A stretch of DNA of 64,000 nucleotides from an uncultured Gammaproteobacteria bacterium (GTDB lineage Bacteria > Patescibacteriota > Patescibacteriia > UBA9934): the NCBI GenBank assembly GCA_964355955.1, contig CAYHFQ010000004.1, positions 1,162 to 65,161 of the forward strand, in the 5' to 3' direction. Of this stretch, positions 11,345 to 53,615 are shown piece after piece. A model generated the notes under the pieces. That model made no database searches, was not told where the DNA came from, and saw nothing but the letters and a program-made list of their open reading frames with translations. Both the position numbers and the translations under genes were made by a program. Position 1 is the stretch's first letter. Every line of letters begins with the position of its first letter.

Positions 11345-11377
11345 TACTCATCGCGTTCCAGGCGATGAGTATTTTTG
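11345..11377 (+). terminator. Rho-independent terminator after rsmA
   Basis: TACTCATCGC-GTTCCAG-GCGATGAGTA followed by TTTTTGG. Confidence 0.7.
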
Positions 11378-11422
11378 GTATACTACTGTTGTACTAGGAG
11401 GATTGCCGTTCGCTTCGCGTCT

Positions 11423-21000: not shown

Positions 21001-21562
21001 AAGAGTGATTGTTGATTGGGGTGACAATAAGCAGTCGGGTGCGGTTGATGGGGGTAACTTCTACAAGAACCATCGTGGGTATCAGGACGGTACGACGACG
21101 AGTATCTGTGATACGGATCCGAATGAGAGTACCTACGAGTGGGGCATGAATGGTGATAGTTGCGACCCTAACTACTTCAGCTATAACCATAACTACACTT
21201 GTAACGACTCCCTGATCTTGGGCATGGACGCTTGTGTCGACGCTAACACGGACGGCATTAACGACGTGTCGCCGTGTATGGCGGTGACGGACGAAGGCAG
21301 CTTCTGTGTCTTTACGCCGAAGGTACATGTACGTGATAACTGGGGTTGGTGTACGGGTAGCTGTGTTGATGCAAGCACGGACTCTATAATCAATCATGAG
21401 GCTGATGCATCAAATAACGGAGGAGCTGGTTGCTTTGACAGCGTTGGTACAATATCCGCAACTTCAATTCAGAGTGAATGTAATTATGAAAGCTATCCGC
21501 TTAATGCATCGAATAATGATCCTTGGGTGCATTATCAGGGAGCGGTATATGTGAAGCCATAA
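12086..21562 (+). CDS. Giant (3158 aa) secreted cysteine-rich surface protein with CBM4/9-like modules
   Basis: Signal peptide MKVRGFKRLSIVALLALLVLPTLFLTVKPALA. Recurrent C-x(3-5)-AGC-x-[ED]-[FY] motifs (TCDASAAGCNKL, TCSAADAGCDEF, SCQSADAGCEEV, CAAAANGCRDYTG). NLIPNSSFETDADVNGLPDNW is carbohydrate-binding-module-like. It is a single uninterrupted ORF. Confidence 0.85.
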   Translation: MKVRGFKRLSIVALLALLVLPTLFLTVKPALAIPTESPDLVASDNANAIRLQSQKKAENLAKKSLSGILFSGLINLMQFAADKAAYTMATALVSGGAAGDPLVEFRTPGVLARDYFQSVGGELVGLVSEDLQTTKIGGVAYFANFNLCAPSSPAVLLSLKLGIKSMFEEPLPKCEWNAIKTNWAGFIADNANTFVGEDSILKNDAVLTQLASAFDPQTNEFSASISLFNKVLYQAKGKSDTALINLIVKGPTKDILDVVTGNVKTASQTIDWYRISQNDHIENQKYDFGKMLISNSAAFEQVGLHAASMFANTLVTSGLQALLSGQFKTNANTVDPFNAGLVALMDKETEQARLKSLYTSVPFEVTNYDALSDYANCPNSGNRGLYNCVMDTSFASAVASAAADNALTVQGAVDQGLVNGDWALIPSSDKSRDQDPYCYTYGYCYSNLVKLRKARIIPDGWEMAADSIYNSESSPVTLQTVMDGFDDCNAAGQPDESHNWCKLIDPNWILKYPDTTCKNLAYGELLESSTDATRQQNCVDAPSCISTDADGNCTGGYGYCVRESNVWQFRGDSCPDYASSCLSFTTSEGAKANYLTNTVDYGSCNADNAGCTWYATDKTVQDDGTYAWPTVTSVAEADIATDTYKTRIYYNDNVETCDASAAGCNKLVERGSDVGLNLIPNSSFETDADVNGLPDNWLSTNATAVTYDDSGVALNGDWVIGSNLGGLLYQSGIVLQQGSFYTLSYYARLMDSSDGEETANMLISLNADNGEVIDLRGTSMSTSCNIYVDGSSVTQPEVLQLSGYTTTTDYQRYTCTFTAPILTDRSATVRAYVDVGDGVNVADVWMDEIQLEQSETVTAWHDGYSTASPTFVYANVPPTYLGCTGADTDAAECADYSTVCQEQDVGCTEYTPANGDPAVFGVVSSLDTCPATCDGYDSYKQEATLYEPDGDFPVYFIPSSATTCSAADAGCDEFTKLSDESLGYFTYLRACLTPEQDAGSTYYTWEGSDATGYQLVTWKLLESDLGDSASSTYTASSNVETNVGKAPCTMWETSATGMTCDDNADGDTGEHFDTDTETCDQHDDIFADPDCREFYDTAGDIHYRLWSKTVTVNEACASYRKTDLVGLGLDSNGDLVDDGDANCTNSGGFFDDTLNECTYYGYSDESNTCAAAANGCRDYTGGRSANSRVAFTDTLETGDYTSWDSTSTANVTYSNESVATDGHSLSSLGQTVWTFMGGDGTVCVDEAGCDETAVALGGTCTVGLDGGYCGTLQDELYAGKTYTLSFWAKGTGTLTAGFNVDAVTSGINLNTASGAGRDATFGTATLSASDWQEYSLGPLNMTADDYADFGNGTVLAFIPDSSSSRFYLDNVVLREGEDSIDVIKGSWTTPTECDATPEGTAFPQYYLGCQQYTSQTGETSYEKSFSSLCSEKKVGCSAYYSTAQTDSAYGQVYGLTCSTLDGAIVGAATNCYYGVIDEDSADTVDPVYDTTSAFMCTIGVGFSSCSANMDWSIPADQLLSHLSYGPSAHVVPADAPLYLIVGDTNSCQSADAGCEEVGLPTFSPDHTAVTASTSTYLLNSPADYDTTLCSQDDLFCQAWDAGDKGEYYFKDPGNQSCEYRTGVTVNNTSYDGWFRTGTDNFCYGSGTCVTTDGSVGASCTTDAECGTGVSCNITSGSYLVGGDQSGIWHNGDPSYNNWVGTCDAGDSTCSEFQDLLQIPDGHLYGESDGTSYFFLDNSSLDESGLTTNEQCNGLVSQKAGCVLFNNTAVTAQTYNASASYVASLHADTLFGDKPNDLENPISCTDAVTSTITTPAGDSVDLCASRCAYGSYALHDANNGSTDVSDTSVGGYYAGRSAAQMASVNGLAALGLTATDLYTFGASCLSDSDCPAMTSDLGDEVDGTCGTTVITISESFYSTEVSEIVPRLEDDSNRVLKVDRDRQCSEWLSCADSQQVWDARTGTYRTICGDIDLCNAYSGTGDASFCSSWVQDDVATALDVTRYTSRDTSWYGHEYSGYAIPDLLPVQMLSQVNITPPPGYCNLPMSAGPAVRSEYQGDTCSVDADCSNQATAFPTIYHGSCSQATAADYRLVFDAGSCDESYGASCTVGYCSDTAAACSSNDQCGSNSCVIGTCYTVGSTDCVTDSDCSSGDTCLAEGKCATDNGQLDVGASCDTGETLYADLNDKTGTCINASCLLTAEGQPVDTGLTEAKDCRAYPESSSPFDNEVVSMWVNPDMSEEPNGNDSKQPFADVASKLDIAPDMVPYSFITGFDNANVCVGGVDCSCSYKKITYGTGSTTSYVSADPAVSIINQSLGICSGGGFDGAACAKSDEDTGVISEAMCERGCTSTDCSDGIAVTSDGNDSDGHSTTLNNSGDVKGGGTCNYPTQEDTILGLDGYCLERDTSINVNGNRDDAHRACLTWLPVDQLAGSTDLYGKDLSAGYFAHASVCSNVSIFMDLGPTLVPELNATVGTEGTPGGQMVACAESKITDRTESSSTEFDGTVDDVFSDDTMSNCGHNLVCPAGYWALIGQPSWADGAISINSQVIANACMGVDSAEYNDCPYVCIPLGAVEPTSGMSCDYGGAYTNEVLANTPNGVSVLDTVNDRLPDNVYAIGSQPSGRAETDSLYGYQNFDYVASSLKLCRVRGVEYTDAFAMSVFALPETTDYYRNLVAGQAVTGVDIYTFDENDLNVEYYPACAEVLNVVDSATDIGYPFTDRILNDSQNYMISDDTYSNMQYERTTTPEPFGVITTDLSARDNSDPPIIAASCADLADASDVYRNFDTIVPPLGDSLNSCDSLIDYSDKVAESYPGNALARAWVSFTLSIQKVTHGTFSVKTSMWSVLPSVGAAEEAFTRISKIFAKADIGTDDNLSTWVGEWSSDGGDALGYQTAATTSDDGYDVYDVRGAEGNPPKVWALSNSTCDGTQCEEGDEGALTLNDQNSGDLEGTGGFYRAYLKFYAAADKNQLPIRRVIVDWGDNKQSGAVDGGNFYKNHRGYQDGTTTSICDTDPNESTYEWGMNGDSCDPNYFSYNHNYTCNDSLILGMDACVDANTDGINDVSPCMAVTDEGSFCVFTPKVHVRDNWGWCTGSCVDASTDSIINHEADASNNGGAGCFDSVGTISATSIQSECNYESYPLNASNNDPWVHYQGAVYVKP

Positions 21563-21668: not shown

Positions 21669-22472
21669 CTACTGGCAGGTGACACTCTCGCCAGCACTGG
21701 TGGTGAACGACACGATGCCGTTTTTCTGGTCGATGCTCGAGGCAGTGATGGTGCGTTCGGAGTCACCACCGAACTTCAGTGATTCTCCATCAATCTCGAT
21801 CCAAAGTCCGGTGCTGTCGGTCACGCCGATCATGTCCAGTTTGTACCCGTACTGCACGGCCAGATCGCTCTGGTCGAAGTCGTCGGTGTAGCTGTTCAGG
21901 ACGTAGTGGCACGTCACAGCCCCCAGGTCGAACCAGAGGTTCAGGTTGGCCGTGAGCGTCATCACGCCGTCGGGGACGGGGTAGCTGGACAGGGCTGCCT
22001 CGGGCTCGGTGTCCGACGGATCGTAGGTCGGGCTGTAAATGTCCAGCACGTCCAGAACGTCGTCGAAGTAGAGCTGCCTCGGCATGGTGGCCCAGAGACC
22101 GGCCTCGTCCTCGAACTTGGGCGTGACTTCACCTTCCACGAGGTTGTTCGCATCGCCGGCGGTGAGCCAGGTCAGCTTGTTCGCCTCGAGGGTAAGCACG
22201 GCGTTGGCCAGGCTGCCGTCACCGGACTTGGCAGACTGGTCGCCCAGGTGCGTGTCGATGACGTCGCCGAGCTGGGTACCGAGCTCGCTGATGAGGTACG
22301 CCAACTGCATGGTTGCGGGTGGATCTGCGGTGTCCGTGTCGCTGTCGCAGTTGCTCGTGCAGTCCGTGCTGTCCTGGTTGTTGCTGTCGTTGGGGTCAAC
22401 GCAGCCGACGAGGGCGAGCAGGGCGGTGAGGGTGAAGAGTGCGGACAGGGTGGGGGTGAGGGTCTTGGTCAT
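21669..22472 (-). CDS. Lipoprotein, Asp/Thr-rich (high-GC gene)
   Basis: MTKTLTPTLSALFTLTALLALVGC carries an L-V-G-C lipobox. About 60% GC against a ~47% background. The track ORF extends 30 codons further upstream. I chose the ATG giving the signal peptide. Confidence 0.6.
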   Translation of the reverse strand: MTKTLTPTLSALFTLTALLALVGCVDPNDSNNQDSTDCTSNCDSDTDTADPPATMQLAYLISELGTQLGDVIDTHLGDQSAKSGDGSLANAVLTLEANKLTWLTAGDANNLVEGEVTPKFEDEAGLWATMPRQLYFDDVLDVLDIYSPTYDPSDTEPEAALSSYPVPDGVMTLTANLNLWFDLGAVTCHYVLNSYTDDFDQSDLAVQYGYKLDMIGVTDSTGLWIEIDGESLKFGGDSERTITASSIDQKNGIVSFTTSAGESVTCQ

Positions 22473-22677
22473 GTGATCTCCGGCCAGGTTGTCTGGCTGT
22501 TGGTTGGAAATAACGAGGGAATCTCGTGCGCTAACCGTAGCCCAAAAATGGCTTTTTGTCAATGGTGTGGATAAGATTTTTGGATGGTTGCCAATTAAAA
22601 AATGGCTAATTTGAGAGAAGAATGTTAATTACGAATGTCTTTATTAATTTGTCTAAATAATGAATAAATTTTAAATA

Positions 22678-24431: not shown

Positions 24432-26183
24432 ATGCGTTCCTTGTATTTCCTGTTCGGTGTTTCGATCTCGCTCGCGTTGATGGCGGCCATGAGCGGCTGC
24501 TGTGGCCCGTTCTGTATGGTCGAGCGTGACGTCAGCCAGGTTGGCGGCGAAGATGCGGTGACTGTCGACATGCCTTTTGCCATGGGCTACCAGAGCCGGT
24601 GCGTGCAGGGCGTCGATGGCAGCTACTCACATCACTCCAACTCCACCTACTTCGACGTGGACTTTGACACGCCGAATGGGGAGGACGACATCGTCTATGC
24701 TCCGGTGAGCGGGACGGCCTACGTGCACGAGAGTGACCCAACGCGCAACTTTGGCAACCACATCAACCTCGACATGAACGACGGGACCTACCTGGTGCTT
24801 GGGCACATGGAGGACATCTTCGTCAGTGACGGGAGTGAGGTGGCGGCCGGGCAGATCCTCGGTTTCGAGGGCACGACCGGCTACAGCACTGGCGATCACG
24901 TCCACATGGGGCGACACGACGGTGATGCGACGCAGGACGCGGTGCGCGGGACGTCGATTGAGGGGCTGGAGTTCAGCCTGTATGACGCGACGACGCGGCA
25001 AACGCTGACCGAGTCGACGGGCGACATGACTTGCGACTTGTCGAGCGGCCACGTCTACCAGTCCACCCTGCCAGTCAACCGCTGGCACCCGGACGGTAGC
25101 TTGGTCAAAACGCCGAGCGACGCCCAGGTGTACCTGGTGGAGAGCGGGCAATTGCGCTACATCAGCGATGAAACCGCGTTCTGGAGCCGTAACTACAGCT
25201 TCAGCGACGTGGCGCTCATCGACACCGACGAAGAAGCCTGCTACGGCCTGGGCAGCGACATCAGCGGCAGTAGCGAAGTGCAGGCCGTGTACCAGTCGGG
25301 CGTGGTCTGGCTACTGCTCGAGACGCCGAGTACCAGCAATCGGCAACGGTTGCGGGTCAAGAGCACGGGCTGGCAAGCGGTGTTGAAGAGCTGGGGCGTG
25401 GTGGCCAGTACCTACGACGACCTGGCGACCAAGCCGATGGACGGCAATCTGACCGACTGGCCAGACAGCGGATACGCTTTGTTCCGCGACGGTAGCCTCA
25501 TCTCGGAAGTCTCGAGCAGCGCGGTCTACGTCGTGAGCGACGGGATTGCTATGCCAATCGAGAGCTGGGATACGTACCTGCTCATGGGCTTCGGTTCACG
25601 GGCGGTCAGCGAGGTGGACAATGGCACAGTGGCCAGCGTCATGAGCCGTGTCGGGGACTGCAACACCAACACCTACTGCGTCAGCCATGAGGACGCGACG
25701 ACCTGTGGCGGACCCTCCGGCAGCGAAGGGGCGTACGACAGCGGCGGTGAAGGTGGCGCGCCGGATACGGGGCAACTCGACACGGGCTATGTGCCACAAC
25801 AGACGGACACGGGCAGCGAGGCGGCGAACCAGAGCCTGAGCGTGAGCTGGTCAACGCCCAGCTTGGCCACGGCCAGCCGCATTGCCCTCTCTGGCGAGTA
25901 TTCGTCAGGTGGGGCAGCGCAAGGCTGGCAGAACTACGGAGAGGTGAGCAATGCGAGCAACCTGACGCAGGTGTTCGTGAACGCGGCACCAGGCGACAGT
26001 CTGCGCTTCTCCGTGGAATACACCATCGGCGGCAACACCAGCTGGTCGTGTTTGGCGCCATTCCCGCCGGGCACCGTACAAGGCAGCCCGAGTGCAGTGT
26101 GGAACGGGCAAGCACTCCCCGTGGTGGCGACGGACGACCCGAGCAGCGATGGCTGTGGGCTGACGGTGACCGTGCCGAACTAG
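24432..26183 (+). CDS. Secreted peptidase M23 (LytM-like) family protein with long C-terminal Ser/Gly-rich domain (high-GC gene)
   Basis: Signal/TM segment MRSLYFLFGVSISLALMAAMSGC. M23 motifs FGNHINLD and TGYSTGDHVHMG. GGAGAG Shine-Dalgarno 4 nt upstream of the ATG at 24432. About 60% GC. Confidence 0.75.
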   Translation: MRSLYFLFGVSISLALMAAMSGCCGPFCMVERDVSQVGGEDAVTVDMPFAMGYQSRCVQGVDGSYSHHSNSTYFDVDFDTPNGEDDIVYAPVSGTAYVHESDPTRNFGNHINLDMNDGTYLVLGHMEDIFVSDGSEVAAGQILGFEGTTGYSTGDHVHMGRHDGDATQDAVRGTSIEGLEFSLYDATTRQTLTESTGDMTCDLSSGHVYQSTLPVNRWHPDGSLVKTPSDAQVYLVESGQLRYISDETAFWSRNYSFSDVALIDTDEEACYGLGSDISGSSEVQAVYQSGVVWLLLETPSTSNRQRLRVKSTGWQAVLKSWGVVASTYDDLATKPMDGNLTDWPDSGYALFRDGSLISEVSSSAVYVVSDGIAMPIESWDTYLLMGFGSRAVSEVDNGTVASVMSRVGDCNTNTYCVSHEDATTCGGPSGSEGAYDSGGEGGAPDTGQLDTGYVPQQTDTGSEAANQSLSVSWSTPSLATASRIALSGEYSSGGAAQGWQNYGEVSNASNLTQVFVNAAPGDSLRFSVEYTIGGNTSWSCLAPFPPGTVQGSPSAVWNGQALPVVATDDPSSDGCGLTVTVPN

Positions 26184-26304
26184 AATTCGGCAACAAGTTT
26201 CTTCTCGATGACGTTCGTTTCCGCTCCTGGGACGAACGTCATTTTCTTTGCTGTGCAAAACCTACGGCGCAGAGTTGAGGGGTGTGATATACTTCTTACT
26301 AACT

Positions 26305-29142
26305 ATGTCGTATCTAGTTAAGTTGGCGAAGTTTGGTCAGAATTTTTTAAGAAATTACGGGAAAATTATTTTTCCAGTATTGCTGTTGATGGCACTTGGT
26401 ACGCCTCAGTTATTGAAGGCTGAAGATCCAGTGACGACAATTCCACAAGGTGTTACACATACAGAGAGCATTGCGGATCTTCAGGCTTCTATTGATGCCA
26501 CTAATGCTGCTGCTGATGCAGGTTTAGCGGCAGACGCAGGATCTAACGTGCCACCGGCAACTAACGCGCCGTCAGCAGCGAGTTATTTGGCAGATGAGGG
26601 TTTAACACAGACAGCGGTGAATGGCGTTATTCTGTTGCTCGGTACGGTTTTTACGTACCTGGCCCAGGGCGTGGGGTGGATTATCTTGCTATTGATTAAG
26701 ATTATCTTGATCCCCATTCTGCATTACGATGGTTTTGCGACCAGTCGTATTATTGGCTTGGGCTGGAGTTTAGTGCGTGACGTTGTCAACATGTTCGTAG
26801 TGGTGGTGCTTTTAGTGATTGCCGTGATGACCATTGTTGGCAGTCCTAAGGCTAACTGGGAACAGCAAATTCCACGATTGTTTATTTATGTCGTGGCTGT
26901 CAACTTTAGCCGTACTATCTGTGGTTTATTGCTCGACGTCGGCAATGTAGTGATGTTTCAGTTTGTTAATGCTATTTTAGATGTTGGAGCTGGTAACTTT
27001 GCTCAGTTGCTGAAGTTAAATATTACCGGAACATTTACTGATCACTTGAATACTACGATTGGTTCGGCCCAGTTGTTAGCCGGTGCTTATATGCAGCTGG
27101 CGTTATTGCTGGCGGTGCTGGCGGTGATTGGTATCATGGTTCTGGTCTTTTTATACCGTATTGTAGTGTTGTGGGTGTTGATTATTATGTCGCCGGCAGC
27201 CTTTTTTGCTGGTGGAATCAAAGATGTGTTGGGTCAAGCTGGAAGTGCTTATAATGACTGGTGGAAGAAGTTCAGTTCGGCGATTATCCTTGGCCCGTTG
27301 TTGACGTTCTTCTTGTGGCTAGCACTAGCAGCGGCTAGTAGCGGTGACATTATTTCGAGTGAAAATTTCCCAACTGGTGGAGCGAGCGAGAACATTCCAG
27401 GTATTGTGTTGCAGCAGTTTGATATGTCGCAATTGGCTGGCTTGATGCTTGGCTTGGTGTTGCTGGTGGTGGGTATGCAACAAGCGTCGCACGCAGCTGG
27501 AGCGCTTGGCCCGATTGCTGCTGGTTTGGTGAGTGAAGGCATGGGTATGAGGATTGTAAAGGGTGCCATGCGTATGCCGGCGCAGCAGTTTGGACGACAG
27601 GCGAACAAGCGTTTGGCGCCAGCTGGGAGTACTCTTACTTCGGAAATTGGTAAGGGTGTTATTGGGCTCGGTCAGGCAGCGAGAAGTACCGGTATACCTA
27701 TTTTAGGTACGGCTTTTGGGGCGACGATTGGCAAAGGCTTGTCCATTGCTGGTAGCGCAATCCAGAAGACTGGTGATGATCAGTTGCATGAGTCGCAGCA
27801 TAATGCTGAGGAGCGAGTTAAGGCTTGGAGCCCAGAGCGTTTGGCTTCTGAATTGGCGTTGGTGGCCAGTGGTGAGAGAGCTGTGTTGCTTTCTAGTGGT
27901 GGCTCGAAAGAGGCGGCTGTTAAGAAGTTGGTGACGGATAAGGGGACTCAGGATATGGTGGCGGCTCAGTTGTATAAGAAAGACAAGGTAAACGGTGCGC
28001 AACAATTCCAGGATTTGATGAGGACTGCTATTGGTCAGGTTGAGCATCATGAGTCGCATATTATTGGTGACGACGACAAGGCCGGTCAAGCCTTTAACGC
28101 GACTAAGTCACGCTATGTGCACTTGATTGGTGCTATGGCTGATGATAAGGGTGAGATGCATACAGCAGCTGAGCGTATGAAGGCACACATGGATAATCCT
28201 AAGTTTAAGGCCGGTGACATGAGTACAGATGCGGTCAAGAATGAAGTGGTGCAGAATAACGCTCGTAACATTGTGACCGGAACTGACGCGGCTGGTAATA
28301 ATATTACAATGTGGGATGAGATTATATCTGGTAAGGGCGTATCTAATAAAATTCGTGAAGCTGCTTTGGCGACGCCTGTTAGAGCTAGTATTGCACCGGA
28401 CGACAAACAGGCTGCACGTTGGGTTTCTGGCGGAGTACGAATTGGTACTTTGAATAACCGTGATGTTACAGAAGCGGATATTCAAAATAACATTACAGGT
28501 GGAGCGCTTGAGATTAATAGTTTAACGAATGCTGACTTTGCGGCTGCTGGAGGTCCAAATCCAGGACATCGAGGAGAAGAAATTGCCAGGTCTATTGCTT
28601 TGTCTGGAGCCAACTTTACGCTGCCTCACAATCAACTTAATGCTGGTGCTTTGGCTGAATTTGAGAGGAATATTACGCGTGTTATCGGTGACACGACTAA
28701 TAATACAAAGGAAGAGATTGTTAAAGCAATTGCGGCTAAATTCGCTTTGCAAAATGCGGCTGGTGTGCCTAATGACTTGTTCGATCCTGCCAATGGTCGA
28801 GGTGTTGGTGATGATATGGCCGCTTTGGCTGAGGCTATGAAGATTGATCAATCCGCTATTAGGTATGTTGATCCAGCCGCACACGGTGGTGTTAATAAGG
28901 AAGTTATTGAAAAAGCGATTGACAGTGCGGTGTCAGTTAATATGATAAACACCTTGCTAGCCAAGATGAAGAAACTGAAAAAGACAGATGTGGAGTATGT
29001 CAATTACAAAGCGGCTATTGACCGAATTGATGCTGCATTGATTAGTTTAGATACTGCGGGTGGTCCATCAGGATCTAAGCAAACATCTGGCTTCAAAAAC
29101 AAGCGCAACCGAGCTCATGAAGTTAAGATTGAAACGGATTAA
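26305..29142 (+). CDS. Large polytopic membrane protein, VirB6/TrbL-like by topology and context, with ~530-aa soluble C-terminal domain
   Basis: Signal peptide, then about 7-8 TM helices at aa 110-420, then a hydrophilic tail. Position upstream of the VirB3/VirB4-like genes. The track start is TTG 26248. The ATG at 26305 gives the signal peptide. Confidence 0.35.
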   Translation: MSYLVKLAKFGQNFLRNYGKIIFPVLLLMALGTPQLLKAEDPVTTIPQGVTHTESIADLQASIDATNAAADAGLAADAGSNVPPATNAPSAASYLADEGLTQTAVNGVILLLGTVFTYLAQGVGWIILLLIKIILIPILHYDGFATSRIIGLGWSLVRDVVNMFVVVVLLVIAVMTIVGSPKANWEQQIPRLFIYVVAVNFSRTICGLLLDVGNVVMFQFVNAILDVGAGNFAQLLKLNITGTFTDHLNTTIGSAQLLAGAYMQLALLLAVLAVIGIMVLVFLYRIVVLWVLIIMSPAAFFAGGIKDVLGQAGSAYNDWWKKFSSAIILGPLLTFFLWLALAAASSGDIISSENFPTGGASENIPGIVLQQFDMSQLAGLMLGLVLLVVGMQQASHAAGALGPIAAGLVSEGMGMRIVKGAMRMPAQQFGRQANKRLAPAGSTLTSEIGKGVIGLGQAARSTGIPILGTAFGATIGKGLSIAGSAIQKTGDDQLHESQHNAEERVKAWSPERLASELALVASGERAVLLSSGGSKEAAVKKLVTDKGTQDMVAAQLYKKDKVNGAQQFQDLMRTAIGQVEHHESHIIGDDDKAGQAFNATKSRYVHLIGAMADDKGEMHTAAERMKAHMDNPKFKAGDMSTDAVKNEVVQNNARNIVTGTDAAGNNITMWDEIISGKGVSNKIREAALATPVRASIAPDDKQAARWVSGGVRIGTLNNRDVTEADIQNNITGGALEINSLTNADFAAAGGPNPGHRGEEIARSIALSGANFTLPHNQLNAGALAEFERNITRVIGDTTNNTKEEIVKAIAAKFALQNAAGVPNDLFDPANGRGVGDDMAALAEAMKIDQSAIRYVDPAAHGGVNKEVIEKAIDSAVSVNMINTLLAKMKKLKKTDVEYVNYKAAIDRIDAALISLDTAGGPSGSKQTSGFKNKRNRAHEVKIETD

Positions 29143-29213
29143 TATTGCTTATGGAGGGGGGTGACATTCGCGGTATTCCAATAGTTAGCCAGTTTTTAAC
29201 GAATGGGGAGTCC

Positions 29214-31073
29214 ATGGAAAAACTGGAGACGATGCAAGAAAAGTATAAACTGCCTGTTGATCGGGCGGACGAGTATTTAATGTTATGTCGGGCGGTGTTG
29301 GACGGGGATATACAACTTGACCACATGCCAGAGATGATTGCCGAGGCGTTTGGGGTGGATGAGGAGATGGCTAAGAAGATTGCTATGGATGTGGTGGCGA
29401 TTAGGTTGTTGCCGCTTGAGGGTTACTGGCCGGGAGTTGAGGCGCAGATTGTGAAGTGGGGTGGAAAAGTGAGTGATTATTCGGCATTTCGTGTAGGTAA
29501 GGAGAAGATTACGGCGGATAGGTTTGCTGGTAATTTAACGGAGAACTTAGAATTGACGTTGTCGCCCGTGCATATTAAGCGTTTGGGATTTTTGGTGAAG
29601 AGTTATTTTGCTGGCGAGAAGACGAGGGATGCGACAATGACGTTTTTTGCCCGACCGGTGAATATCGGAGGCTTGGGGTTGGCGCTTGAACAAGCTAAGG
29701 GTTTGATGGAGAGTATTGATGAGTCTAAAGAGATGGTGGAGTTGGTGGATGATGAGAGGGATGAGACTTTTAGGGAGGAATCTGAAGAGCCGGTAGAACC
29801 AGTTAATGAGGTTACTGAGAGTGATAATATTTTAAAGGAGGCTCGGCCGGTAGAAGAGATGAAAATTGAGACACTAATAGGCGGGGATACCATGCCCCGC
29901 CAGGAGGAGCCTGTAGTCGAGCCAATTATTGAAGATGTAAAGCGGGGGACGGTGACCCCGCCTATTACGAAGATAAAAGAAGAGGTCGTTGCAGAGAAGA
30001 TACCCGAAGAAATTCCAGTGATAGCGAATTTGCCGGAGGTGGCGCCGAGTATGGTAGTTTCGACCACGACGCCGGTGACGCCGAGGGTGATGGTGGCTGG
30101 GGGAGAGCTTGCGTCCGACAGCGAAGAGATTGCGGCGCAGGCTAAAGTGATTGCCAAGAAAGATATTGCGAGTGAGGGTAATGACGAGAAGTTAAAGGCG
30201 GCGGTGGATTTGGTGCTGACGTCAGCGTCGACCTTATTGCAGGCTAAGAGATTGGCGAAGAAAGAGTTTGCGCCAGTTTGCGAGATGATGATTAGAGGCG
30301 TACGAGATGTCATGCAGACGCGGGGAGTGCTAGTGAAAGAGTTTGGATTGGACGAGGCGTCGATTGATGCTTTGCTGGGATTCGTCGATGATGGGGCGAA
30401 ATTCTATCATCAGGCTGAGATTAAGCGGGGGACGGTGACCCCCCCTATTGAAGTGAAAGCTGCGGTGCCAACAGTAGGTGAAGTGATGGACCGGAGGTTC
30501 GCGGAGGTGACGAAAACGTTGCCTAAGGCACCGATTGTGCCGGTGATGGATGAAGCTAGGGTGAGTGCAGCCAGAAGCAAAGAAGATGAGGTAGCGGAAC
30601 AAGCGGCGAAGATTGATGTGGCTAAGCTCGAAGTGGCGGCAGAAGCGGCCAAGCCGGTGTTAGCGAAAGCGATGCTGACGGTGGGCAGTGTGGCGCCAAG
30701 CTTGCCAGGTGAGCCTGTGATGATGAACGACGTGAAGTTTAAGCCGCGATTGGTTGGCCCGGTGGATGAGCTCGGTACTATGATGCCGGCTGACTTTAGG
30801 CGTTTGTCGAGCGATCCAGTAGAGGCGACCAAGAAGATTGAAGATTTGTTGGCGGCGCTGCAGACAACGTCGTTTGAAGAAAGGATTAGAGGTATTCAGG
30901 CTTGGCGCGTGAGCCCAGTTTGTAGATTATATGCGGCCATGGCTGGCGAAGCGTTGCAGGCTGGCGTGGCGTTGGCGGAAGTAGCGAGTAAGAGACGTAA
31001 TAAGGGCGAGGAGAGTTTGAGCCCGGCGGAGATGAAGGCGATAGGATCGTTGAACGCAAAGATGAGATTCTAG
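29214..31073 (+). CDS. Acidic hypothetical protein with internal repeat (KRGTVTPPI twice)
   Basis: GGGGAG Shine-Dalgarno 4 nt before the ATG at 29214. Glu-rich with no TM helix. The repeat lines are VKRGTVTPPITKIKEEV and IKRGTVTPPIEVKAAV. Confidence 0.55.
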   Translation: MEKLETMQEKYKLPVDRADEYLMLCRAVLDGDIQLDHMPEMIAEAFGVDEEMAKKIAMDVVAIRLLPLEGYWPGVEAQIVKWGGKVSDYSAFRVGKEKITADRFAGNLTENLELTLSPVHIKRLGFLVKSYFAGEKTRDATMTFFARPVNIGGLGLALEQAKGLMESIDESKEMVELVDDERDETFREESEEPVEPVNEVTESDNILKEARPVEEMKIETLIGGDTMPRQEEPVVEPIIEDVKRGTVTPPITKIKEEVVAEKIPEEIPVIANLPEVAPSMVVSTTTPVTPRVMVAGGELASDSEEIAAQAKVIAKKDIASEGNDEKLKAAVDLVLTSASTLLQAKRLAKKEFAPVCEMMIRGVRDVMQTRGVLVKEFGLDEASIDALLGFVDDGAKFYHQAEIKRGTVTPPIEVKAAVPTVGEVMDRRFAEVTKTLPKAPIVPVMDEARVSAARSKEDEVAEQAAKIDVAKLEVAAEAAKPVLAKAMLTVGSVAPSLPGEPVMMNDVKFKPRLVGPVDELGTMMPADFRRLSSDPVEATKKIEDLLAALQTTSFEERIRGIQAWRVSPVCRLYAAMAGEALQAGVALAEVASKRRNKGEESLSPAEMKAIGSLNAKMRF

Positions 31074-31114
31074 AAGGTAGAGGGTAGAGAGTAGAACGTA
31101 GATTGTGCTATAAT
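31071..31114 (+). promoter_or_regulatory. Five tandem heptamers TAGA-N-N-G followed by extended -10 (TGCTATAAT)
   Basis: TAGAAGG TAGAGGG TAGAGAG TAGAACG TAGATTG then TGCTATAAT. The ATG at 31121 lies 7 nt after the -10 box, so the message is predicted leaderless. Confidence 0.55.
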
Positions 31115-31120
31115 GAAAGC

Positions 31121-31561
31121 ATGGCTGGTCGCAATCAATTTGTCGTGCCGCAGTTCCTCGACGTCGAGGCGAAAATTATCGGGCCAATTACGGCGCGGCA
31201 GTTTGTTATTTTTTTAGTGGTGCTGTTGTTTGAGTTCTTATTATATCGAATATTTTTAAGTTTAGCTGTCATTCTAATAGTTGGTTTGCCAGTGTTGGGC
31301 CTAGGTATACTTTTTGCTTTTTTTAAGGTTAATGGTCAACCTTTCCATTATATTCTGCTGAACGTAATTCAGACCATGCGGAAACCACGCTTAAGAGTTT
31401 GGGATAAGACGTTGTCTGATGCTGACATTAGGGTCTTTATGTTGCCGCCAGTAGTCGCTCCACCGCCACCGCCAGTAGCCAAGTCACCGATCGAAAGAGG
31501 AAGGTTGTCGGAATTGACGCTCGTGGTTAATACAGGCGGAAGTTACAATCCGGAGGACTAA
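31121..31561 (+). CDS. Small two-TM membrane protein, VirB3/PrgI-like
   Basis: N-terminal VVPQFLDVEAKIIGPITARQFVIFLVVLLFEF followed by a hydrophobic hairpin. Located immediately upstream of the VirB4-family gene, which is the canonical order. Confidence 0.45.
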   Translation: MAGRNQFVVPQFLDVEAKIIGPITARQFVIFLVVLLFEFLLYRIFLSLAVILIVGLPVLGLGILFAFFKVNGQPFHYILLNVIQTMRKPRLRVWDKTLSDADIRVFMLPPVVAPPPPPVAKSPIERGRLSELTLVVNTGGSYNPED

Positions 31562-31570
31562 AATAACTAT

Positions 31571-32257
31571 ATGGCAACCAATAAATTAGCTAAGCCAAAG
31601 GCGGGGCCACCAACACAGAGATATTTGGATATTGCCGAGATTCGTGAAGATGTGGTGGTGATGAAAGACGGAACACTGCGAACGGTGCTGATGACGAGCA
31701 GCCTAAATTTTGCTTTGAAGAGTGAAGACGAACAACAGGCCGTGATTCAGGGGTATATGCAGTTTTTAAATAGTTTGGAGCACCCGATTCAGATCGTTAT
31801 TCAATCGAGAAGGATGAACGTGGATGGGTATTTGGAACGTTTAAAGCAACAAGAAGATACGATTGGCAATGAGTTACTGAAGTCACAAATTCGAGACTAC
31901 ACGTCGTTTATTAGCGAGTTGGTGGAGTTAGGTGAGATCATGCAAAAGAGATTTTTTGTCATTATTCCGTTTGACCCACTGCAAGATAAGAAGCAAAGTT
32001 TTGTGACTAAATTGCAGACTGCCTTGGCACCAGCTTCGGTAGTGAAGTTGAATGAAAAGGTGTTTCGTACTAGGCGGGATAGTCTGATGCAGCGCACGAG
32101 CAATGTGGCTGGCGGCTTGGGCAGTATGGGCTTGCAAAGCGCTATGCTCGATACGCAGGGTCTGATTGAGTTGTATTATTCGGTGTATAATCCAGATATT
32201 GCAGAAACGCAGAAAATGACCGATATCAATAAGTTAAGAATCGAGACAAAATTCTAG
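31571..32257 (+). CDS. VirB4-family protein, N-terminal segment (separated from ATPase segment by a single in-frame TAG)
   Basis: DVVVMKDGTLRTVLMTSSLNFALKSEDEQQAVIQGYMQFLNSLEHPIQIVIQS. It is in the same reading frame as the 32261 ORF, with only TAG at 32255-32257 between them. Confidence 0.5.
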   Translation: MATNKLAKPKAGPPTQRYLDIAEIREDVVVMKDGTLRTVLMTSSLNFALKSEDEQQAVIQGYMQFLNSLEHPIQIVIQSRRMNVDGYLERLKQQEDTIGNELLKSQIRDYTSFISELVELGEIMQKRFFVIIPFDPLQDKKQSFVTKLQTALAPASVVKLNEKVFRTRRDSLMQRTSNVAGGLGSMGLQSAMLDTQGLIELYYSVYNPDIAETQKMTDINKLRIETKF

Positions 32258-32260
32258 TTT

Positions 32261-34174
32261 ATGGCTTTTGATGTCGAAAAACTGCAGCAGAGTAAGGTGA
32301 CTGTAGCTGCGCCTAAAGTTCAGCGCGTTTTGTCGCCGCAGGAATTAGCAGCGGCGCAGGAAAGAGTAACGCTTGAAGAAGAGCGAACTTACAGGCGCGG
32401 TGTGGTGTCGATCAGAGATTTGATTGCGCCAGCGGCGTACCAGATTTTTCCTAACTATTTGTTGTTGGGCGATACTTACGTCCGAACGTTGTTTGTGACG
32501 ATGTACCCTCGTTATGTGGGTATTGGTTGGGGGACGCCGATTATCAACTACAACAGTACCATTGATATCGGCATGTTCTTCTATCCAGTAAAACCGGAGA
32601 TTATTTTGAAGCAACTCAAGAATAAAGTAGGTGTACTTTCTGCGCAGATTATTTCTGATAATGAGAAAGGCGCGGCTCGTGACCCGATTCGTGAAACGGC
32701 GTTACGTGATATTGAACAATTGCGCGATGACTTGACGCAAGGCATCGAGCATTTCTTTCAATTTGCTTTTTATGTCACTGTTTACGCCAAGAATAAAGAG
32801 GAACTGGATAAACGATCGGAACAAATTGAAAGTATTTTTGGAACAAAATTAATTTCTAGTAAACGCGGTTTCTATCAGGCGGAGCAGGGCTTTAATTCCA
32901 CCATGCCACTTGGCAATGATGAGTTGATGATTAGCTTTAACATGAATACGTCGCCAATTGCGTCGTCATTCCCATTCACGTCAAGCGATTTGAGTAGCGA
33001 TAATGGTATTTTGTACGGCATTAATAGGCACAATAACTCGCTTATTTTGTTTGACCGTTTTAGCTTGCAGAATGCGAATGCCTTGGTGTTTGCGACTTCT
33101 GGTGCGGGTAAATCTTACACGGTCAAACTGGAAATTTTACGTTCGCTCATGATGGGAACGGACGTGATTGTTATTGACCCGGAAATGGAATACCGACACC
33201 TGAGCGATGCGGTTGGTGGGACGTATGTGAACGTTTCTTTGGCGTCCGATGCGAAGATTAACCCGTTTGATTTGCCACGCAGCAAGGGGGATGAAACGAG
33301 TTCGGAAGATGTTTTGCGAAGTGCGGTGATTACAATTAAGGGCTTGCTCCGGATCATGATTGGGACGCCGCGCGGTGAGAAGAGTCAGCTTGGTTTTACG
33401 CCGGAAGAAGATTCGTTGCTCGACCGGGCGTTGCTTGAAACGTATGCTAAGAAAGATATTACAGCTGATCTGCCTAACTTTATTGGGGTTGAATATCCGG
33501 TGCTGCAAGATTTGCAGGATGTGTTGCAAGGCATGCAAGGAGCAACGGATTTGGTGGCGCGTTTGCAAAAGTATACCGAGGGGACGTTTGCTGGCTTGTT
33601 GAATAGTTTGACGACGGTGGAGATGCGTAACCAGTTGGTTATTTTCTCAGTACGAGATTTGGAGGACGAGTTGCGCCCAATGGCGATTTATACCATCGTT
33701 AACTACATTTGGAATGTGGTGCGCAGTGAACGTAAGAAGCGTATTCTCGTGATCGACGAGGCTTGGTGGCTCATGCAGAATGAAGACTCGGCCAAGTTTA
33801 TTTTTGCGCTAGTCAAGCGAGCGCGTAAGTACTTCCTGGGCGTGACAACGATTACGCAGGATGTGAACGACTTTTTAACCAGTGTTTACGGCCAGGCGAT
33901 TGTGACCAACTCTTCCATGCAGATGTTGCTGAAACAGTCACCAGCGGCGATTGACTTGATTCAGAAGACGTTTAACCTGACAGATAGCGAGAAGTACTTG
34001 TTGCTTGAGAGCGCAGTGGGTGAAGGAATTTTCTTTGCTGGGCAGAAACATGCGGCCATTAAGGTGGTGGCGAGTTATACTGAGGACCAGTTAATTACGA
34101 CGAACCCACAGCAGTTATTGGAGCAAGAGCAAGCTAAAAAACAGTTTGAGAAATCATTAGGCGGCGGCAGTTAG
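32261..34174 (+). CDS. VirB4/TrbE/CagE-family type IV secretion ATPase (C-terminal ATPase segment)
   Basis: Walker A LVFATSGAGKSYTVK and Walker B RILVIDEAWWLM (the DEAW motif typical of VirB4/TraC). Conserved C-terminal TQ...ESAVGEGIFFAG. Confidence 0.7.
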   Translation: MAFDVEKLQQSKVTVAAPKVQRVLSPQELAAAQERVTLEEERTYRRGVVSIRDLIAPAAYQIFPNYLLLGDTYVRTLFVTMYPRYVGIGWGTPIINYNSTIDIGMFFYPVKPEIILKQLKNKVGVLSAQIISDNEKGAARDPIRETALRDIEQLRDDLTQGIEHFFQFAFYVTVYAKNKEELDKRSEQIESIFGTKLISSKRGFYQAEQGFNSTMPLGNDELMISFNMNTSPIASSFPFTSSDLSSDNGILYGINRHNNSLILFDRFSLQNANALVFATSGAGKSYTVKLEILRSLMMGTDVIVIDPEMEYRHLSDAVGGTYVNVSLASDAKINPFDLPRSKGDETSSEDVLRSAVITIKGLLRIMIGTPRGEKSQLGFTPEEDSLLDRALLETYAKKDITADLPNFIGVEYPVLQDLQDVLQGMQGATDLVARLQKYTEGTFAGLLNSLTTVEMRNQLVIFSVRDLEDELRPMAIYTIVNYIWNVVRSERKKRILVIDEAWWLMQNEDSAKFIFALVKRARKYFLGVTTITQDVNDFLTSVYGQAIVTNSSMQMLLKQSPAAIDLIQKTFNLTDSEKYLLLESAVGEGIFFAGQKHAAIKVVASYTEDQLITTNPQQLLEQEQAKKQFEKSLGGGS

Positions 34175-34177
34175 AAC

Positions 34178-34292
34178 TTGCCCAGTTGGCCTATTTTGAG
34201 CTTGTCGCTGCGCCAATCTCTTCACCGCACGCCAAAGTGCGCCTCAGAGACTTGGCTTGCTCCGCACTCAAACTAGTCGCAACTGAACAAGT
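34178..34292. repeat. Family-2 MITE-like repeat, copy E1
   Basis: Imperfect terminal inverted repeats CAGTTGGCCTATTTTG ... CAAACTAGTCGCAACTG. Internal hairpin GCAC-GCCAAA-GTGC. Confidence 0.75.
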
Positions 34293-34309
34293 CCTCCCGA
34301 ATCACTTTA

Positions 34310-34867
34310 ATGTATAATATGCAACGTAAAACTGAAATCATCATTGCTATCATCATCATTGTCGCTTTAGCGATTCTGCTGTTTTTCTGGTTCAACCGAA
34401 CGGTTAAGCAGGCTGCTACGCCAACTAAGGTGACACCTGAGGTGACGACGTCGATTAAGACGACGCCAACTCCGAGTGCAACTGGTATAGCAGTGGCAGC
34501 TCCATCATCGGCTAGTACGGTGGCTCGAGTTTTTGTCGAAAGATTTGGAAGCTATTCGACCGAGTCGGGTTATACGAATATTGATGACGTGATGTCACTG
34601 ACGACAAAAGATTTGCAGGGTCGCTTGCAGAGTTTATTAGAGGCGGCGCAAAAGGAGGCACAGAGTGATTATTACGGTGTCTCGACGCGCTTGATGGGGA
34701 GTAAGACAGAAGTGACGGCTGAAACGTCCATGACGTATAAGATGTCGACGCAACGGCAAGAGTCGTTTGATTCGCCAGCTAATACTTCGGTGAGGTACCA
34801 GGATATTCGAGTTGTGCTGACAAAATCTGGTGATAGTTGGCTCGTAAGCGACTTCACCTGGCTGTAG
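34310..34867 (+). CDS. Bitopic membrane protein (N-terminal TM, ~120-aa extracytoplasmic domain), function unknown
   Basis: IIIAIIIIVALAILLFFWF TM helix then a Thr/Pro linker. Bracketed on both sides by family-2 repeats. Confidence 0.5.
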   Translation: MYNMQRKTEIIIAIIIIVALAILLFFWFNRTVKQAATPTKVTPEVTTSIKTTPTPSATGIAVAAPSSASTVARVFVERFGSYSTESGYTNIDDVMSLTTKDLQGRLQSLLEAAQKEAQSDYYGVSTRLMGSKTEVTAETSMTYKMSTQRQESFDSPANTSVRYQDIRVVLTKSGDSWLVSDFTWL

Positions 34868-34987
34868 AACTTCCTCGGTTGGCCTATTTTGGGCTTGTCG
34901 CTGCGCCAATCTCTTCACCGCACTGCTCTAGTGCGCCTCAGAGACTTGGCTTGCTTCGCACCCAAACTAGTCACAACTGTGAAAGTT
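34868..34987. repeat. Family-2 MITE-like repeat, copy E2
   Basis: About 90% identical to E1. The internal hairpin loop is changed (GCACT-GCTC-TAGTGC). Confidence 0.75.
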
Positions 34988-35005
34988 CTCTAATGATCGA
35001 ATCAT

Positions 35006-35680
35006 ATGTCTGGTTTGGCTGAGCGAGTGCTCGAGGCGGTGTTCCCGAGGTTTTGTGTGAGCTGCCAGCGGGAAGGCGGCTTGTTATGTTTGGCGTGTGA
35101 CGAAGGGTGGAATCCAGAGAGGCCGAGAGTGCTCGAGAGCAAAGATGAGGGAGTTGACTGCGATATTAGCAAGCTGTGGGCGGTGTTGCCGTATGCTAAT
35201 CCGGTGGCGAGGGAGCTGATAACGTCGTGGAAGTACAATTACGATACTTCGGCATGGGCAATATTGCGTCGACGATTGGCGCCACAGATAGCTACATTGA
35301 CGCTGACGTTGGCCATGCATAAGATTGAGGCGATTGTGCCGTTGCCGCTGATGAATCAACGAAGATGCGAAAGGGGGTTCGATCAGTCGGTGGAGATTGC
35401 TGAGTGGCTGAGTAAGTTGACCAACTTGCCGGTGGCTCATTTGTTGGTACGAAAGCATACGGCGGGACACCAAGCAGATAGAACGGTAGACGAAAGATTA
35501 AAAGCGATGATGGCGTCGCCTTTTTCGTTGAGCACCGAGCTTTGTAATGCTATACCTCGAAGGGTTCTGTTGGTGGATGACGTATGGACGACGGGGGCGA
35601 CGATGAGTGCTGGGGCGAGGACGTTGAAGAGTGGGGGAGTAGAGGAGGTTTTTGGGTTTGCATTGGCGAGAGGAAAGTAG
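35006..35680 (+). CDS. comF: ComF family phosphoribosyltransferase-domain competence protein (ComFC-like)
   Basis: N-terminal Cys4 (CVSCQ...CLAC) and a C-terminal PRTase motif VLLVDDVWTTGATM. Confidence 0.7.
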   Translation: MSGLAERVLEAVFPRFCVSCQREGGLLCLACDEGWNPERPRVLESKDEGVDCDISKLWAVLPYANPVARELITSWKYNYDTSAWAILRRRLAPQIATLTLTLAMHKIEAIVPLPLMNQRRCERGFDQSVEIAEWLSKLTNLPVAHLLVRKHTAGHQADRTVDERLKAMMASPFSLSTELCNAIPRRVLLVDDVWTTGATMSAGARTLKSGGVEEVFGFALARGK

Positions 35681-36245: not shown

Positions 36246-36782
36246 TCAGAGTTTATACAGTCTGGAGAGCATATCTGTCAAGTATTCACGCTCTCTATTG
36301 AGGTTTTCGAAGGCATACGGTAAAAGTGCCTTGCGGACGTCGTTGGGATTCATGTCTTCCAGTGGAACAGTCAAAGTTGGGGCTAAAGAACCATGAAAAG
36401 CCACATAAAGGGTTTTTACATCAGGTGGGTTGTAAATAATTGAAAAATCTCGCACATCCTGATAAGGATAGAAATTATGGCCGAAAACCACGCCACCAGT
36501 AGTTAAGTGAATTTCAACCCTATCTGGCTTACGGATATCACGCATGAGCGTAATAACCGCAAACATGATAATAATCACGGCAAACACGAAGTTCGCTGCG
36601 ATTATTGCATAGAGGAGTAAAGCTAGACCAAGGGTACTAGCAATAATGTACCAACGGCGCGATCGCACCACTGGCGGGTATTCCCAAGTCTCCCAACTAA
36701 GAATGGACGCTCCAGCGTCAATTTTCTCTTTATTCTCTTCCATATTTTGCTTAACTTCAGGCATGTTCATAGTATACCACAC
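36246..36782 (-). CDS. Hypothetical membrane protein (two central TM helices)
   Basis: 178-aa ORF with the hydrophobic core YIIASTLGLALLLYAIIAANFVFAVIIIMFAVI. Confidence 0.45.
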   Translation of the reverse strand: MWYTMNMPEVKQNMEENKEKIDAGASILSWETWEYPPVVRSRRWYIIASTLGLALLLYAIIAANFVFAVIIIMFAVITLMRDIRKPDRVEIHLTTGGVVFGHNFYPYQDVRDFSIIYNPPDVKTLYVAFHGSLAPTLTVPLEDMNPNDVRKALLPYAFENLNREREYLTDMLSRLYKL

Positions 36783-46512: not shown

Positions 46513-46521
46513 AGTGGGGCA

Positions 46522-48021: not shown

Positions 48022-48027
48022 ACAAGA

Positions 48028-48672: not shown

Positions 48673-48677
48673 ATTTT

Positions 48678-49901: not shown

Positions 49902-49910
49902 AGGGAGAAA

Positions 49911-50681: not shown

Positions 50682-50705
50682 AGACCCCAGTAGTATAACA
50701 TGAAG

Positions 50706-53330: not shown

Positions 53331-53615
53331 ACTATTATTTATTTCGTCTTTGCGAGCGTCAGCGAAGCAATCTTGGTGAGCTCTCCATTCCAGCCAACGC
53401 GAGACTCGGGGAGTCCCTTTCTTTCTCTCTCGGGCATTTTGACGATCGATATTTACTACTTGAGTGAAATATCGCCACCAAAATGCGCGTCCCTCGGTCG
53501 ACGAAAGGGACATCCCACTCGTCTTCGTTGACTTCGGGCTCGTACCGTTGACATCCGAGGAAGACGGGGTCTACCTCGGATGTCGGCTCGTTAAGACGCG
53601 GTGGCTGCGAGTGCG

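Follow-up and report, generated by a model that had tools for sequence, protein, structure and literature searches.

The 64-kb window examined here (64,000 nucleotides of contig CAYHFQ010000004.1) carries eight co-directional, closely packed genes on its plus strand at ~24.4-35.7 kb (positions 24432-35680). This locus is very probably a chromosomal, vertically inherited type IV secretion system (T4SS) of Candidatus Uhrbacteria (class ABY1), derived from the conjugation machinery of Gram-positive bacteria (MPF_FATA). The components identified by homology or fold are a VirB4 split into two proteins, one of them TrsD-like, a PrgI/VirB3 protein, VirB6-like and VirB8-like proteins, an M23 peptidase and a linked VirB2-like pilin-domain protein. 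The locus is an instance of the chromosomal T4SS of Patescibacteria that has already been published (Wang 2023; Quinonero-Coronel 2025), and nothing essential differs. The genes run in the order M23, VirB6-like, acidic protein, PrgI, TrsD-like, VirB4, VirB8-like and ComF, separated by 64, 2, 29, 9, 3, 135 and 138 nt:

24432-26183, plus strand: M23 metallopeptidase, predicted to be secreted and possibly a lipoprotein (Pfam PF01551); the open reading frame (ORF) opens with TTG at 24408, and the likely start is the ATG at 24432
26207-26243, plus strand: terminator-like hairpin with a 15-bp stem (consensus scan), between the M23 gene and the VirB6-like gene
26305-29142, plus strand: probable extended VirB6-like polytopic membrane protein (ORF from 26248), with a signal-like segment, six transmembrane (TM) segments and a soluble tail
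29145-31073, plus strand: acidic cytoplasmic protein of 642 aa, in a conserved slot between the VirB6-like gene and PrgI
31121-31561, plus strand: PrgI/VirB3-like two-TM protein (ORF from 31103; Pfam PF12666)
31571-32257, plus strand: TrsD-like protein of 228 aa, a separate VirB4 N-terminal domain (NCBIfam NF045975, NF041427)
32261-34174, plus strand: VirB4-family ATPase (NF045971, conju_CD1110)
34310-34867, plus strand: VirB8-like bitopic protein of 185 aa (model, Foldseek, hhalign)
35006-35680, plus strand: ComF (ComFC-type) competence protein (TIGR00201)

An earlier note on this DNA had described a minimal module of six genes. The genes and sequence motifs that it listed were all found where it had placed them, while the TrsD-like gene at 31571-32257 had been overlooked, and the set comprises eight genes in all. 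The word minimal was an overstatement, with TrsD-like, VirB8-like and pilin-domain components present as well; the core of VirB4, VirB6-like protein and PrgI had been recognised correctly.

Conservation and chromosomal setting

More than 508 VirB4 relatives were found among species-representative genomes, and synteny was compared by tblastn on the best 80 loci. The VirB4 proteins of these 80 show 72-99% identity and come almost entirely from metagenome-assembled genomes (MAGs) of Candidatus Uhrbacteria or Patescibacteria. The eight-gene order from M23 to ComF is kept in ~78 of the 80 species-level genomes, an arrangement conserved far beyond chance, which speaks for vertical inheritance; for the M23 gene, the number of loci is limited by the flank length fetched. 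Compared with three relatives, all eight genes have dN/dS (nonsynonymous to synonymous substitution) ratios of 0.01-0.29, values that are approximate because synonymous sites are near saturation. All eight genes are intact and under purifying selection. In many of the loci, a small membrane protein, RecG, RadA, a pilin-domain protein and a DsbA-like protein are encoded within 10 kb past ComF.

Uhrbacteria fall within class ABY1 (PMC12577380). On sequence grounds, the source of the window is a Candidatus Uhrbacteria bacterium, an ultra-small member of the Patescibacteria. Many MAG records titled ‘uncultured Gammaproteobacteria bacterium’ (L008, L009, L011, L016, L017, L019, L020 and others) show the same synteny, with VirB4 at 73-81% identity, and on those records the label is evidently a placeholder or an error.

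The VirB4, PrgI, VirB6-like and VirB8-like proteins have homologues in the conjugation machinery of Gram-positive bacteria and are encoded in the order seen on plasmid pCF10 (VirB6, VirB3, VirB4, VirB8), in agreement with the earlier note. The locus could on this basis be an ordinary conjugative element, either an integrative and conjugative element (ICE) or an integrated plasmid, or the decaying remnant of one, with its relaxase and coupling protein located outside the window. The setting makes this highly improbable. Pfam was run on all plausible ORFs of at least 120 aa in the window and on the called genes of the 10-kb flanks (~84 kb in total), and the surroundings consist of housekeeping functions: translation and transcription (NusA, a release factor (prfA/B), Sua5, KsgA, tRNAs, PheS/PheT, ThrRS), chaperones and membrane insertion (YidC, GroES/EL, a ClpB-like protein), replication and recombination (RecG, RadA, DnaE), and metabolism and cell wall (HPPK/DHPS (folK/folP), a murD-like Mur ligase). 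No relaxase family was matched in the 64-kb window or within 10 kb on either side, so that the absence of relaxase and coupling protein reported by the earlier note extends to this whole region. The same ~84 kb yielded no coupling protein (no T4SS-DNA_transf, TrwB, FtsK-type or VirD4/TcpA-type match) and no integrase, and therefore the locus is not an ICE; the complete flanking ICE that the earlier note had set out as an alternative is absent. An origin as ICE or plasmid was rejected on these housekeeping flanks, on the fixed position with the same neighbours in ~78 of the 80 genomes, and on the purifying selection acting on intact genes (VirB4 dN/dS, 0.014-0.034). Apart from the M23 gene, the base composition of the locus also matches that of the chromosome. 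In the survey of PMC12102498, no more than 103 of the 3,035 Patescibacteria genomes have a relaxase.

A VirB4 motor encoded as two genes

The ATPase matches the NCBIfam model NF045971 (conju_CD1110) at 2.4e-105, with 353 bits against a cutoff of 325, and P-loop_TraG at 1.8e-29; the VirB4_plasma, TraC and VirB4_CagE models match as well. Walker A lies at nt 33092-33121 and Walker B at nt 33749-33772. By its profile matches, the protein is a bona fide VirB4 of the Gram-positive kind (MPF_FATA, CD1110-type). The earlier note had proposed a VirB4-family ATPase and had allowed for an unrelated protein that would fail against VirB4 profiles; the former is what was found.

The TrsD-like protein upstream matches NF045975 (VirB4_plasma, N-terminal region) at 2.7e-9 and NF041427 (TrsD/TraD family) at 2.9e-6. 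On the CD1110 VirB4 model it covers positions 2-88, and VirB4 proper covers positions 158-730, from which it follows that VirB4 is encoded here as two genes. The TrsD-like protein is present in 78 of the 80 loci at 56-92% identity, with dN/dS of 0.01-0.02. A sequencing frameshift or pseudogene as the cause of the split was considered and rejected, given that the split recurs in 78/80 loci and that both parts have dN/dS of ~0.01-0.03.

The two-TM protein preceding them, which the earlier note had rightly likened to VirB3/PrgI, matches PF12666 at 1.6e-10 (41.8 bits against a cutoff of 27). It occurs in 78 of the 80 loci at 46-83% identity, and its dN/dS is 0.03-0.07.

Membrane and accessory proteins

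The 26305-29142 product opens with a signal-like segment, has six hydrophobic segments at aa 109-390 and ends in a soluble tail of ~555 aa that varies between species, as in the earlier description of a polytopic membrane protein with a large soluble tail. Its start is likely the ATG at 26305, because that methionine is nearly invariant. The VirB6-like identity read into it earlier met with a mixed result. Neither Pfam and NCBIfam searches of the window protein nor tblastn against plasmids gave a match, a profile search of the PDB yielded nothing beyond coiled-coil noise, and hhalign against pCF10 PrgH gave a probability of 0.3%. The first 500 residues were modelled with moderate confidence (predicted local distance difference test (pLDDT) score, 66.6); in Foldseek, this model has no significant match, and its best TM-scores are to VirB6 chains. 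Word-indexed homologue searches recovered 2 and 26 proteins only, since hydrophobic words saturated the candidate list. With moderate confidence, the model points to an extended VirB6-like channel protein.

The acidic protein that follows has a D+E content of 17%, no TM segment and the motif RGTVTPPI twice, consistent with the acidic repeat protein noted before. It is found in 78 of the 80 loci, measures 414-774 aa in relatives and has dN/dS of 0.11-0.18. Its alignment shows conserved domains at both ends, the C-terminal one of ~115 aa with the pattern GPVDEL...DFRRLS.DP.EA...AWR.SP...LN..LRF, joined by a variable linker rich in acidic residues and proline. Searches of Pfam (also with each family member), NCBIfam and the PDB (including a profile search) gave no match, and the protein may be a lineage-specific T4SS subunit.

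The bitopic protein at 34310-34867, whose place downstream of the ATPase together with a ComF-like gene had been described correctly, is VirB8-like according to its predicted fold. The AlphaFold2 model (64 homologues; pLDDT 86.4) has an N-terminal TM helix, a disordered linker that is variable in sequence, and an alpha+beta NTF2-like domain. The top PDB matches in Foldseek are CagV (2.6e-5, TM-score 0.67-0.70), R388 TrwG, PrgL (2.5e-4), TcpC and Agrobacterium VirB8, with the matches to VirB8 homologues ranging from 2.6e-5 to 1.3e-3. Pfam VirB8 is matched by 9 of 65 members of the family (best, 2.6e-7), and profile comparison with PrgL in hhalign gives an E-value of 2.3e-4. The protein is present in 77 of the 80 loci. 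A weak IcmG/DotF match spans the TM helix and linker only and was disregarded.

At the head of the locus, the M23 peptidase domain (PF01551, 6.8e-15) occupies aa 84-172, and the HxxxD and HxH motifs, FGNHINLD and GDHVHMG, lie at nt 24750-24773 and 24891-24911, as expected for the secreted peptidase of the earlier note. Its N-terminal hydrophobic segment ends in SGC. An orthologue occupies the same position in at least 46 loci, with dN/dS of 0.17-0.29, and the protein is a candidate for the cell-wall hydrolase (VirB1 role) of the system. The gene has a GC content of 0.63 and a GC content at third codon positions (GC3) of 0.82, far above the neighbouring genes (GC3 ~0.44-0.61). A recent horizontal gain was considered as the explanation and rejected: the orthologues are richer in GC than their neighbours in nearly all of ~45 Uhrbacteria loci, typically by 5-15 points, which argues against recent transfer. 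A 297-aa Asp/Ser/Thr-rich, secreted or lipoprotein-like protein encoded at 21669-22562 on the minus strand is GC-rich in the same way (both genes, GC 0.61-0.63 and GC3 0.82-0.83), and the GC skew is weaker over these two genes.

Proposed operation and the question of DNA import

By analogy with these families elsewhere, VirB4 and TrsD would dock on PrgI/VirB3 and power assembly and transport, with the VirB6-like and VirB8-like proteins building the membrane channel. The M23 peptidase would open the bacterium's own wall, and the pilin-domain protein may form or anchor a surface structure. The machine would thus move macromolecules between the epibiont and its host cell, with protein export, or import of DNA or other molecules, as candidate activities; transfer of a mobile element is not expected because there is no relaxase or coupling protein nearby.

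Several points weigh against reading the locus in this way. The T4SS experiment was performed only in Saccharimonadia, another class than ABY1 (PMC10633639). VirD4-like matches lie far from virB4 in most genomes (PMC12102498), and the scan of the present locus covers ~84 kb of a 1.09-Mb genome, which may have a coupling protein or relaxase elsewhere. The 80 closest VirB4 relatives are consistent with a placement in the published Patescibacteria clade, which is read from these nearest neighbours, and the VirB6 assignment comes from the moderate-confidence model (pLDDT 66.6). PMC10633639, in the summary given by PMC12857230, reports that natural transformation of Candidatus Southlakia epibionticum requires ComEC and type IV pili, which weakens a DNA-uptake role for the T4SS.

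The neighbouring genes bear on this last point:

43023-45095, plus strand: RecG helicase (Pfam RecG_wedge, DEAD, Helicase_C)
45229-46512, minus strand: RadA/Sms recombination protein (Pfam KaiC-type ATPase, ChlI, zinc ribbon)
46522-48021, minus strand: pilin-domain protein of 499 aa (PF18895, T4SS_pilin)
48028-48672, minus strand: DsbA-like thioredoxin (Pfam Thioredoxin_4, 3.8e-27; DSBA, 6.9e-10)

ComF (TIGR00201, 1.3e-24) directly follows the VirB8-like gene in 78 of the 80 loci and is a conserved neighbour, not a structural part of the T4SS. In the flanks fetched, recG is syntenic in 28 loci and radA in 20. With such conserved neighbours, the system could plausibly be connected to incoming DNA in this lineage, and the tight linkage of comF, with the looser linkage of recG and radA, favours some such connection. 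A stronger version holds that the locus is a dedicated DNA-import (competence) machine, comparable to H. pylori ComB or archaeal Ced, which passes DNA to ComF and then to RecG and RadA for recombination or nucleotide salvage. Besides the comF, recG and radA associations, this agrees with the proposal in PMC12102498, where the same association is noted in ABY1 and import of DNA or other macromolecules is suggested, with the lack of a relaxase or type IV coupling protein (T4CP) over ~84 kb, hence export of processed DNA is unlikely, and with the weak similarity of VirB4 to the Ced ATPase CedB (NF041017, 2.7e-13). Adjacency, however, is not function: 138 nt separate comF from the VirB8-like gene and tRNA genes come after it, recG and radA are housekeeping genes, and the 64-kb window contains no comEC, comEA or dprA. 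In S. epibionticum, according to PMC10633639 and PMC12857230, deletion of comEC leaves viability unaffected, whereas the T4SS is essential. We consider a dedicated import machine possible, though unlikely.

As a side observation, a 178-aa membrane protein encoded at 36246-36782 on the minus strand recurs in 44 related loci; its gene lies downstream of comF, at a distance of a few kb at most, and its orientation varies.

A pilin-domain protein with a putative hydrolase domain

The earlier note saw no pilin, which holds inside 24432-35680 and fails for the window, where a T4SS_pilin protein is encoded at 46522-48021 on the minus strand. The gene lies ~16 coding sequences downstream of virB4, between radA and the dsbA-like gene, and is syntenic in relatives. 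The protein (PF18895, 3.5e-12) starts with a signal peptide, and its two Cys-rich parts, an N-terminal region and a C-terminal domain (C-domain), flank a VirB2-like hairpin of two TM segments (aa ~120-215); it has 19 cysteines in total. The DsbA-like gene, 6 nt upstream, is syntenic with the pilin gene in 10 loci, and its product probably oxidises the numerous cysteines of the pilin-domain protein.

The C-domain carries the motifs SASR..Q at aa 303, H-x6-D at aa 388-395 and E-x-x-H at aa 434-437. The R..Q, H-x6-D and E-x-x-H motifs are invariant in the alignment of its family, which is common to ~35 of 150 representatives, and are typical of LAS/VanY zinc peptidases. Pfam (E up to 1), phmmer against the PDB, a PDB profile search and BLASTP against a VanY-type orthologue gave nothing usable for the window domain, and a hidden Markov model (HMM) built from six VanY-type domains matched close relatives of the window protein, not the window protein itself. 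The domain is linked to that of a VanY-positive orthologue by jackhmmer and, transitively, by HMM. The motifs and these transitive links suggest a divergent LAS/VanY-like type.

In 13 syntenic orthologues (L024:20498-21850, L034:19706-21136, L043:19861-21033, L045:18227-19549, L050:20034-21647, L053:17722-18996, L059:17032-18036 and others), the hairpin is kept throughout and the C-domain changes: Amidase_2 in 4, Peptidase_C39_2 in 3, M23 in 2, NlpC/P60 in 2 and VanY in 1. An exhaustive search with just the hairpin returned 11,006 representative clusters at E <=1e-3. Among the top 111 single-hairpin proteins, 110 match T4SS_pilin, and their C-domains match M23 (14), C39_2 (13), NlpC/P60 (11), M15_4 (9) and VanY (6), or more rarely M15 (3), SLT (2), 3D (2) and GDSL lipase (1). 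Judged by these domain matches, a pilin-like hairpin is fused to a peptidoglycan-hydrolase domain that belongs to different enzyme families in different species, at an unchanged chromosomal position. Such fusions were not found in PMC12102498 or in the literature searched, which was limited, so that an earlier description elsewhere is possible.

Among the relatives, some polypeptides carry 3-8 tandem pilin hairpins each (P0218, 1128 aa; P0226, 822 aa; P0235, 820 aa; P0183; P0219), a fused version of the ‘pilin arrays’ reported for Patescibacteria.

Tentatively, the ‘T4SS pilin’ of Uhrbacteria and related Patescibacteria might be a delivery or anchoring module for interchangeable peptidoglycan hydrolases, with the hairpin staying in place beside radA and the dsbA-like gene while the enzyme domain was swapped repeatedly. 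The T4SS would present these enzymes where the cells touch or as part of a pilus-like structure, suited to the wall chemistry of the host of each species, so as to open the envelope for uptake of DNA or nutrients. A further account makes the display of pilin-anchored hydrolases and the M23 peptidase against the host wall the main task of the system, as a device for attack or adhesion, with transport through the channel secondary. The variation of the hydrolase family at one locus fits this, as domain swapping is typical of proteins facing a variable target, and so does the DsbA-like gene adjoining the pilin gene. Yet the pilin gene lies 12 kb from virB4 in a separate operon on the opposite strand, remodelling of the bacterium's own wall (VirB1 role) is an equally conceivable task for the hydrolases, and the window C-domain is assigned by motifs and transitive HMM links only. 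The conservation of VirB4 argues for a true translocation motor, and an attack device as the main function appears doubtful.

The minus strand at 45229-53513 holds six genes with gaps of 5-24 nt, encoding a ClpB/ClpC-like ATPase, a 256-aa protein with C-terminal TM segments, a 407-aa protein with a TM segment and a beta-propeller (PD40), the DsbA-like protein, the pilin-hydrolase protein and RadA. They look like one operon joining envelope and recombination functions.

Comparison with known systems

A large part of the diversity of uncultured bacteria belongs to the Patescibacteria, most of which apparently live attached to other microbial cells. To our knowledge, no T4SS before their relaxase-less one had been shown to be essential for the growth of its owner.

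VirB4 occurs in 2,417 of 3,035 Patescibacteria genomes, where its sequences make up a clade inside MPF_FATA; it is most often accompanied by TrsD, and PrgI/VirB3, VirB6 and VirB2-like proteins are also common (Quinonero-Coronel et al. 2025, PMC12102498). In that survey, VirB8 homologues are almost confined to ABY1, coupling-protein matches are rarely near virB4, and comF, recG and radA are found in the neighbourhood of ABY1 loci specifically. The present locus shares with this system a VirB4 with separate TrsD, PrgI/VirB3, VirB6-like, VirB8-like and VirB2-like (PF18895) proteins, the lack of a relaxase or T4CP nearby, the housekeeping context, the proximity of comF, recG and radA, and ksgA upstream. 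The acidic 642-aa protein, the M23 gene with its consistently high GC content at the start of the locus and the fusion of hydrolases to the pilin hairpin were not found in PMC12102498.

Transposon insertion sequencing (Tn-seq) showed that the T4SS genes of S. epibionticum, which lacks a recognisable relaxase or coupling protein, are essential for epibiotic growth (Wang et al. 2023, PMC10633639). These findings recur in a review of 2025, which speculates on a conduit for uptake from the host (PMC12857230). The T4SS of strain ML1 (SEML1_0006-0019, PMC10633639) is likewise Gram-positive-like, without coupling protein or relaxase, and has pilin-like genes and wall hydrolases alongside. It differs in belonging to the class Saccharimonadia, in its small VirB2-like pilin array inside the cluster and in its position near dnaA; no VirB8 structural homologue has been reported there, and essentiality was demonstrated in that organism, whereas the locus here is known from its genes. 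The suggestion in the earlier note of a stripped-down apparatus for host interaction or DNA uptake is reasonable and equals the published hypothesis (PMC10633639; PMC12102498), and is accordingly neither new nor proven.

The MPF_FATA prototype, the Prg/Pcf system of pCF10 (Enterococcus faecalis), has the same order, with PrgH (VirB6), PrgI (VirB3), PrgJ (VirB4), PrgK (hydrolase) and PrgL (VirB8); its VirB4 falls in the NCBIfam CD1110 family, and the VirB8-like fold of the window matches PrgL. In contrast to the present locus, it resides on a plasmid, which has an oriT and encodes a T4CP (PcfC), a relaxase (PcfG) and the adhesin PrgB; VirB4 is one polypeptide there, the hydrolase is a muramidase plus CHAP enzyme, and there is no pilin. 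PrgH has no detectable sequence similarity to the 964-aa VirB6-like protein. Among the MPF_FATA subclasses, only the Trs system of pGO1/pSK41 (Staphylococcus; TrsC, TrsD, TrsE) has TrsD, a relative of the VirB4 N-terminus, as a separate protein encoded beside VirB4, as here, but it is a conjugative plasmid system with relaxase and T4CP, and the subclass lacks a profile-detectable VirB6 (PMC12102498). H. pylori ComB and archaeal Ced are T4SS-derived, relaxase-less and used for import, and the present locus is likened to them, by genes alone, through the comF link and the CedB similarity. ComB differs as a diderm VirB2-4/6-10 system, and Ced in having other membrane proteins.

The window adds no new kind of system and gives a clean, complete Uhrbacteria example, in which two conserved partners without annotation stand out, namely the VirB8-like protein and the acidic protein of 642 aa. 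Pilin-anchored, species-variable wall hydrolases would offer a concrete handle on how epibionts breach their hosts.

Other features of the window

The hairpin at 26207-26243 may divide the M23 gene and the VirB6-like gene into two transcription units; it is a weak lead, because the number of matches in the promoter and terminator consensus scan is not clearly above that in shuffled sequence. The GC skew is strongly positive across positions 1-64000 (0.10-0.38 per 2 kb), including the minus-strand gene block at 45-55 kb. As the skew is positive throughout, with no switch, the window lies on one replichore, with neither origin nor terminus inside. Proximity to the replication origin was considered and is not supported, as nusA, not dnaA, lies upstream of yidC and the skew does not switch in the window. 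Directly upstream of the T4SS region, a giant ORF of 3,158 aa (12086-21562, plus strand) has only a weak CBM_4_9 match and is probably one of the huge surface proteins typical of bacteria of the candidate phyla radiation; it is preceded by a TSP3-repeat protein (11375-12082, plus strand).

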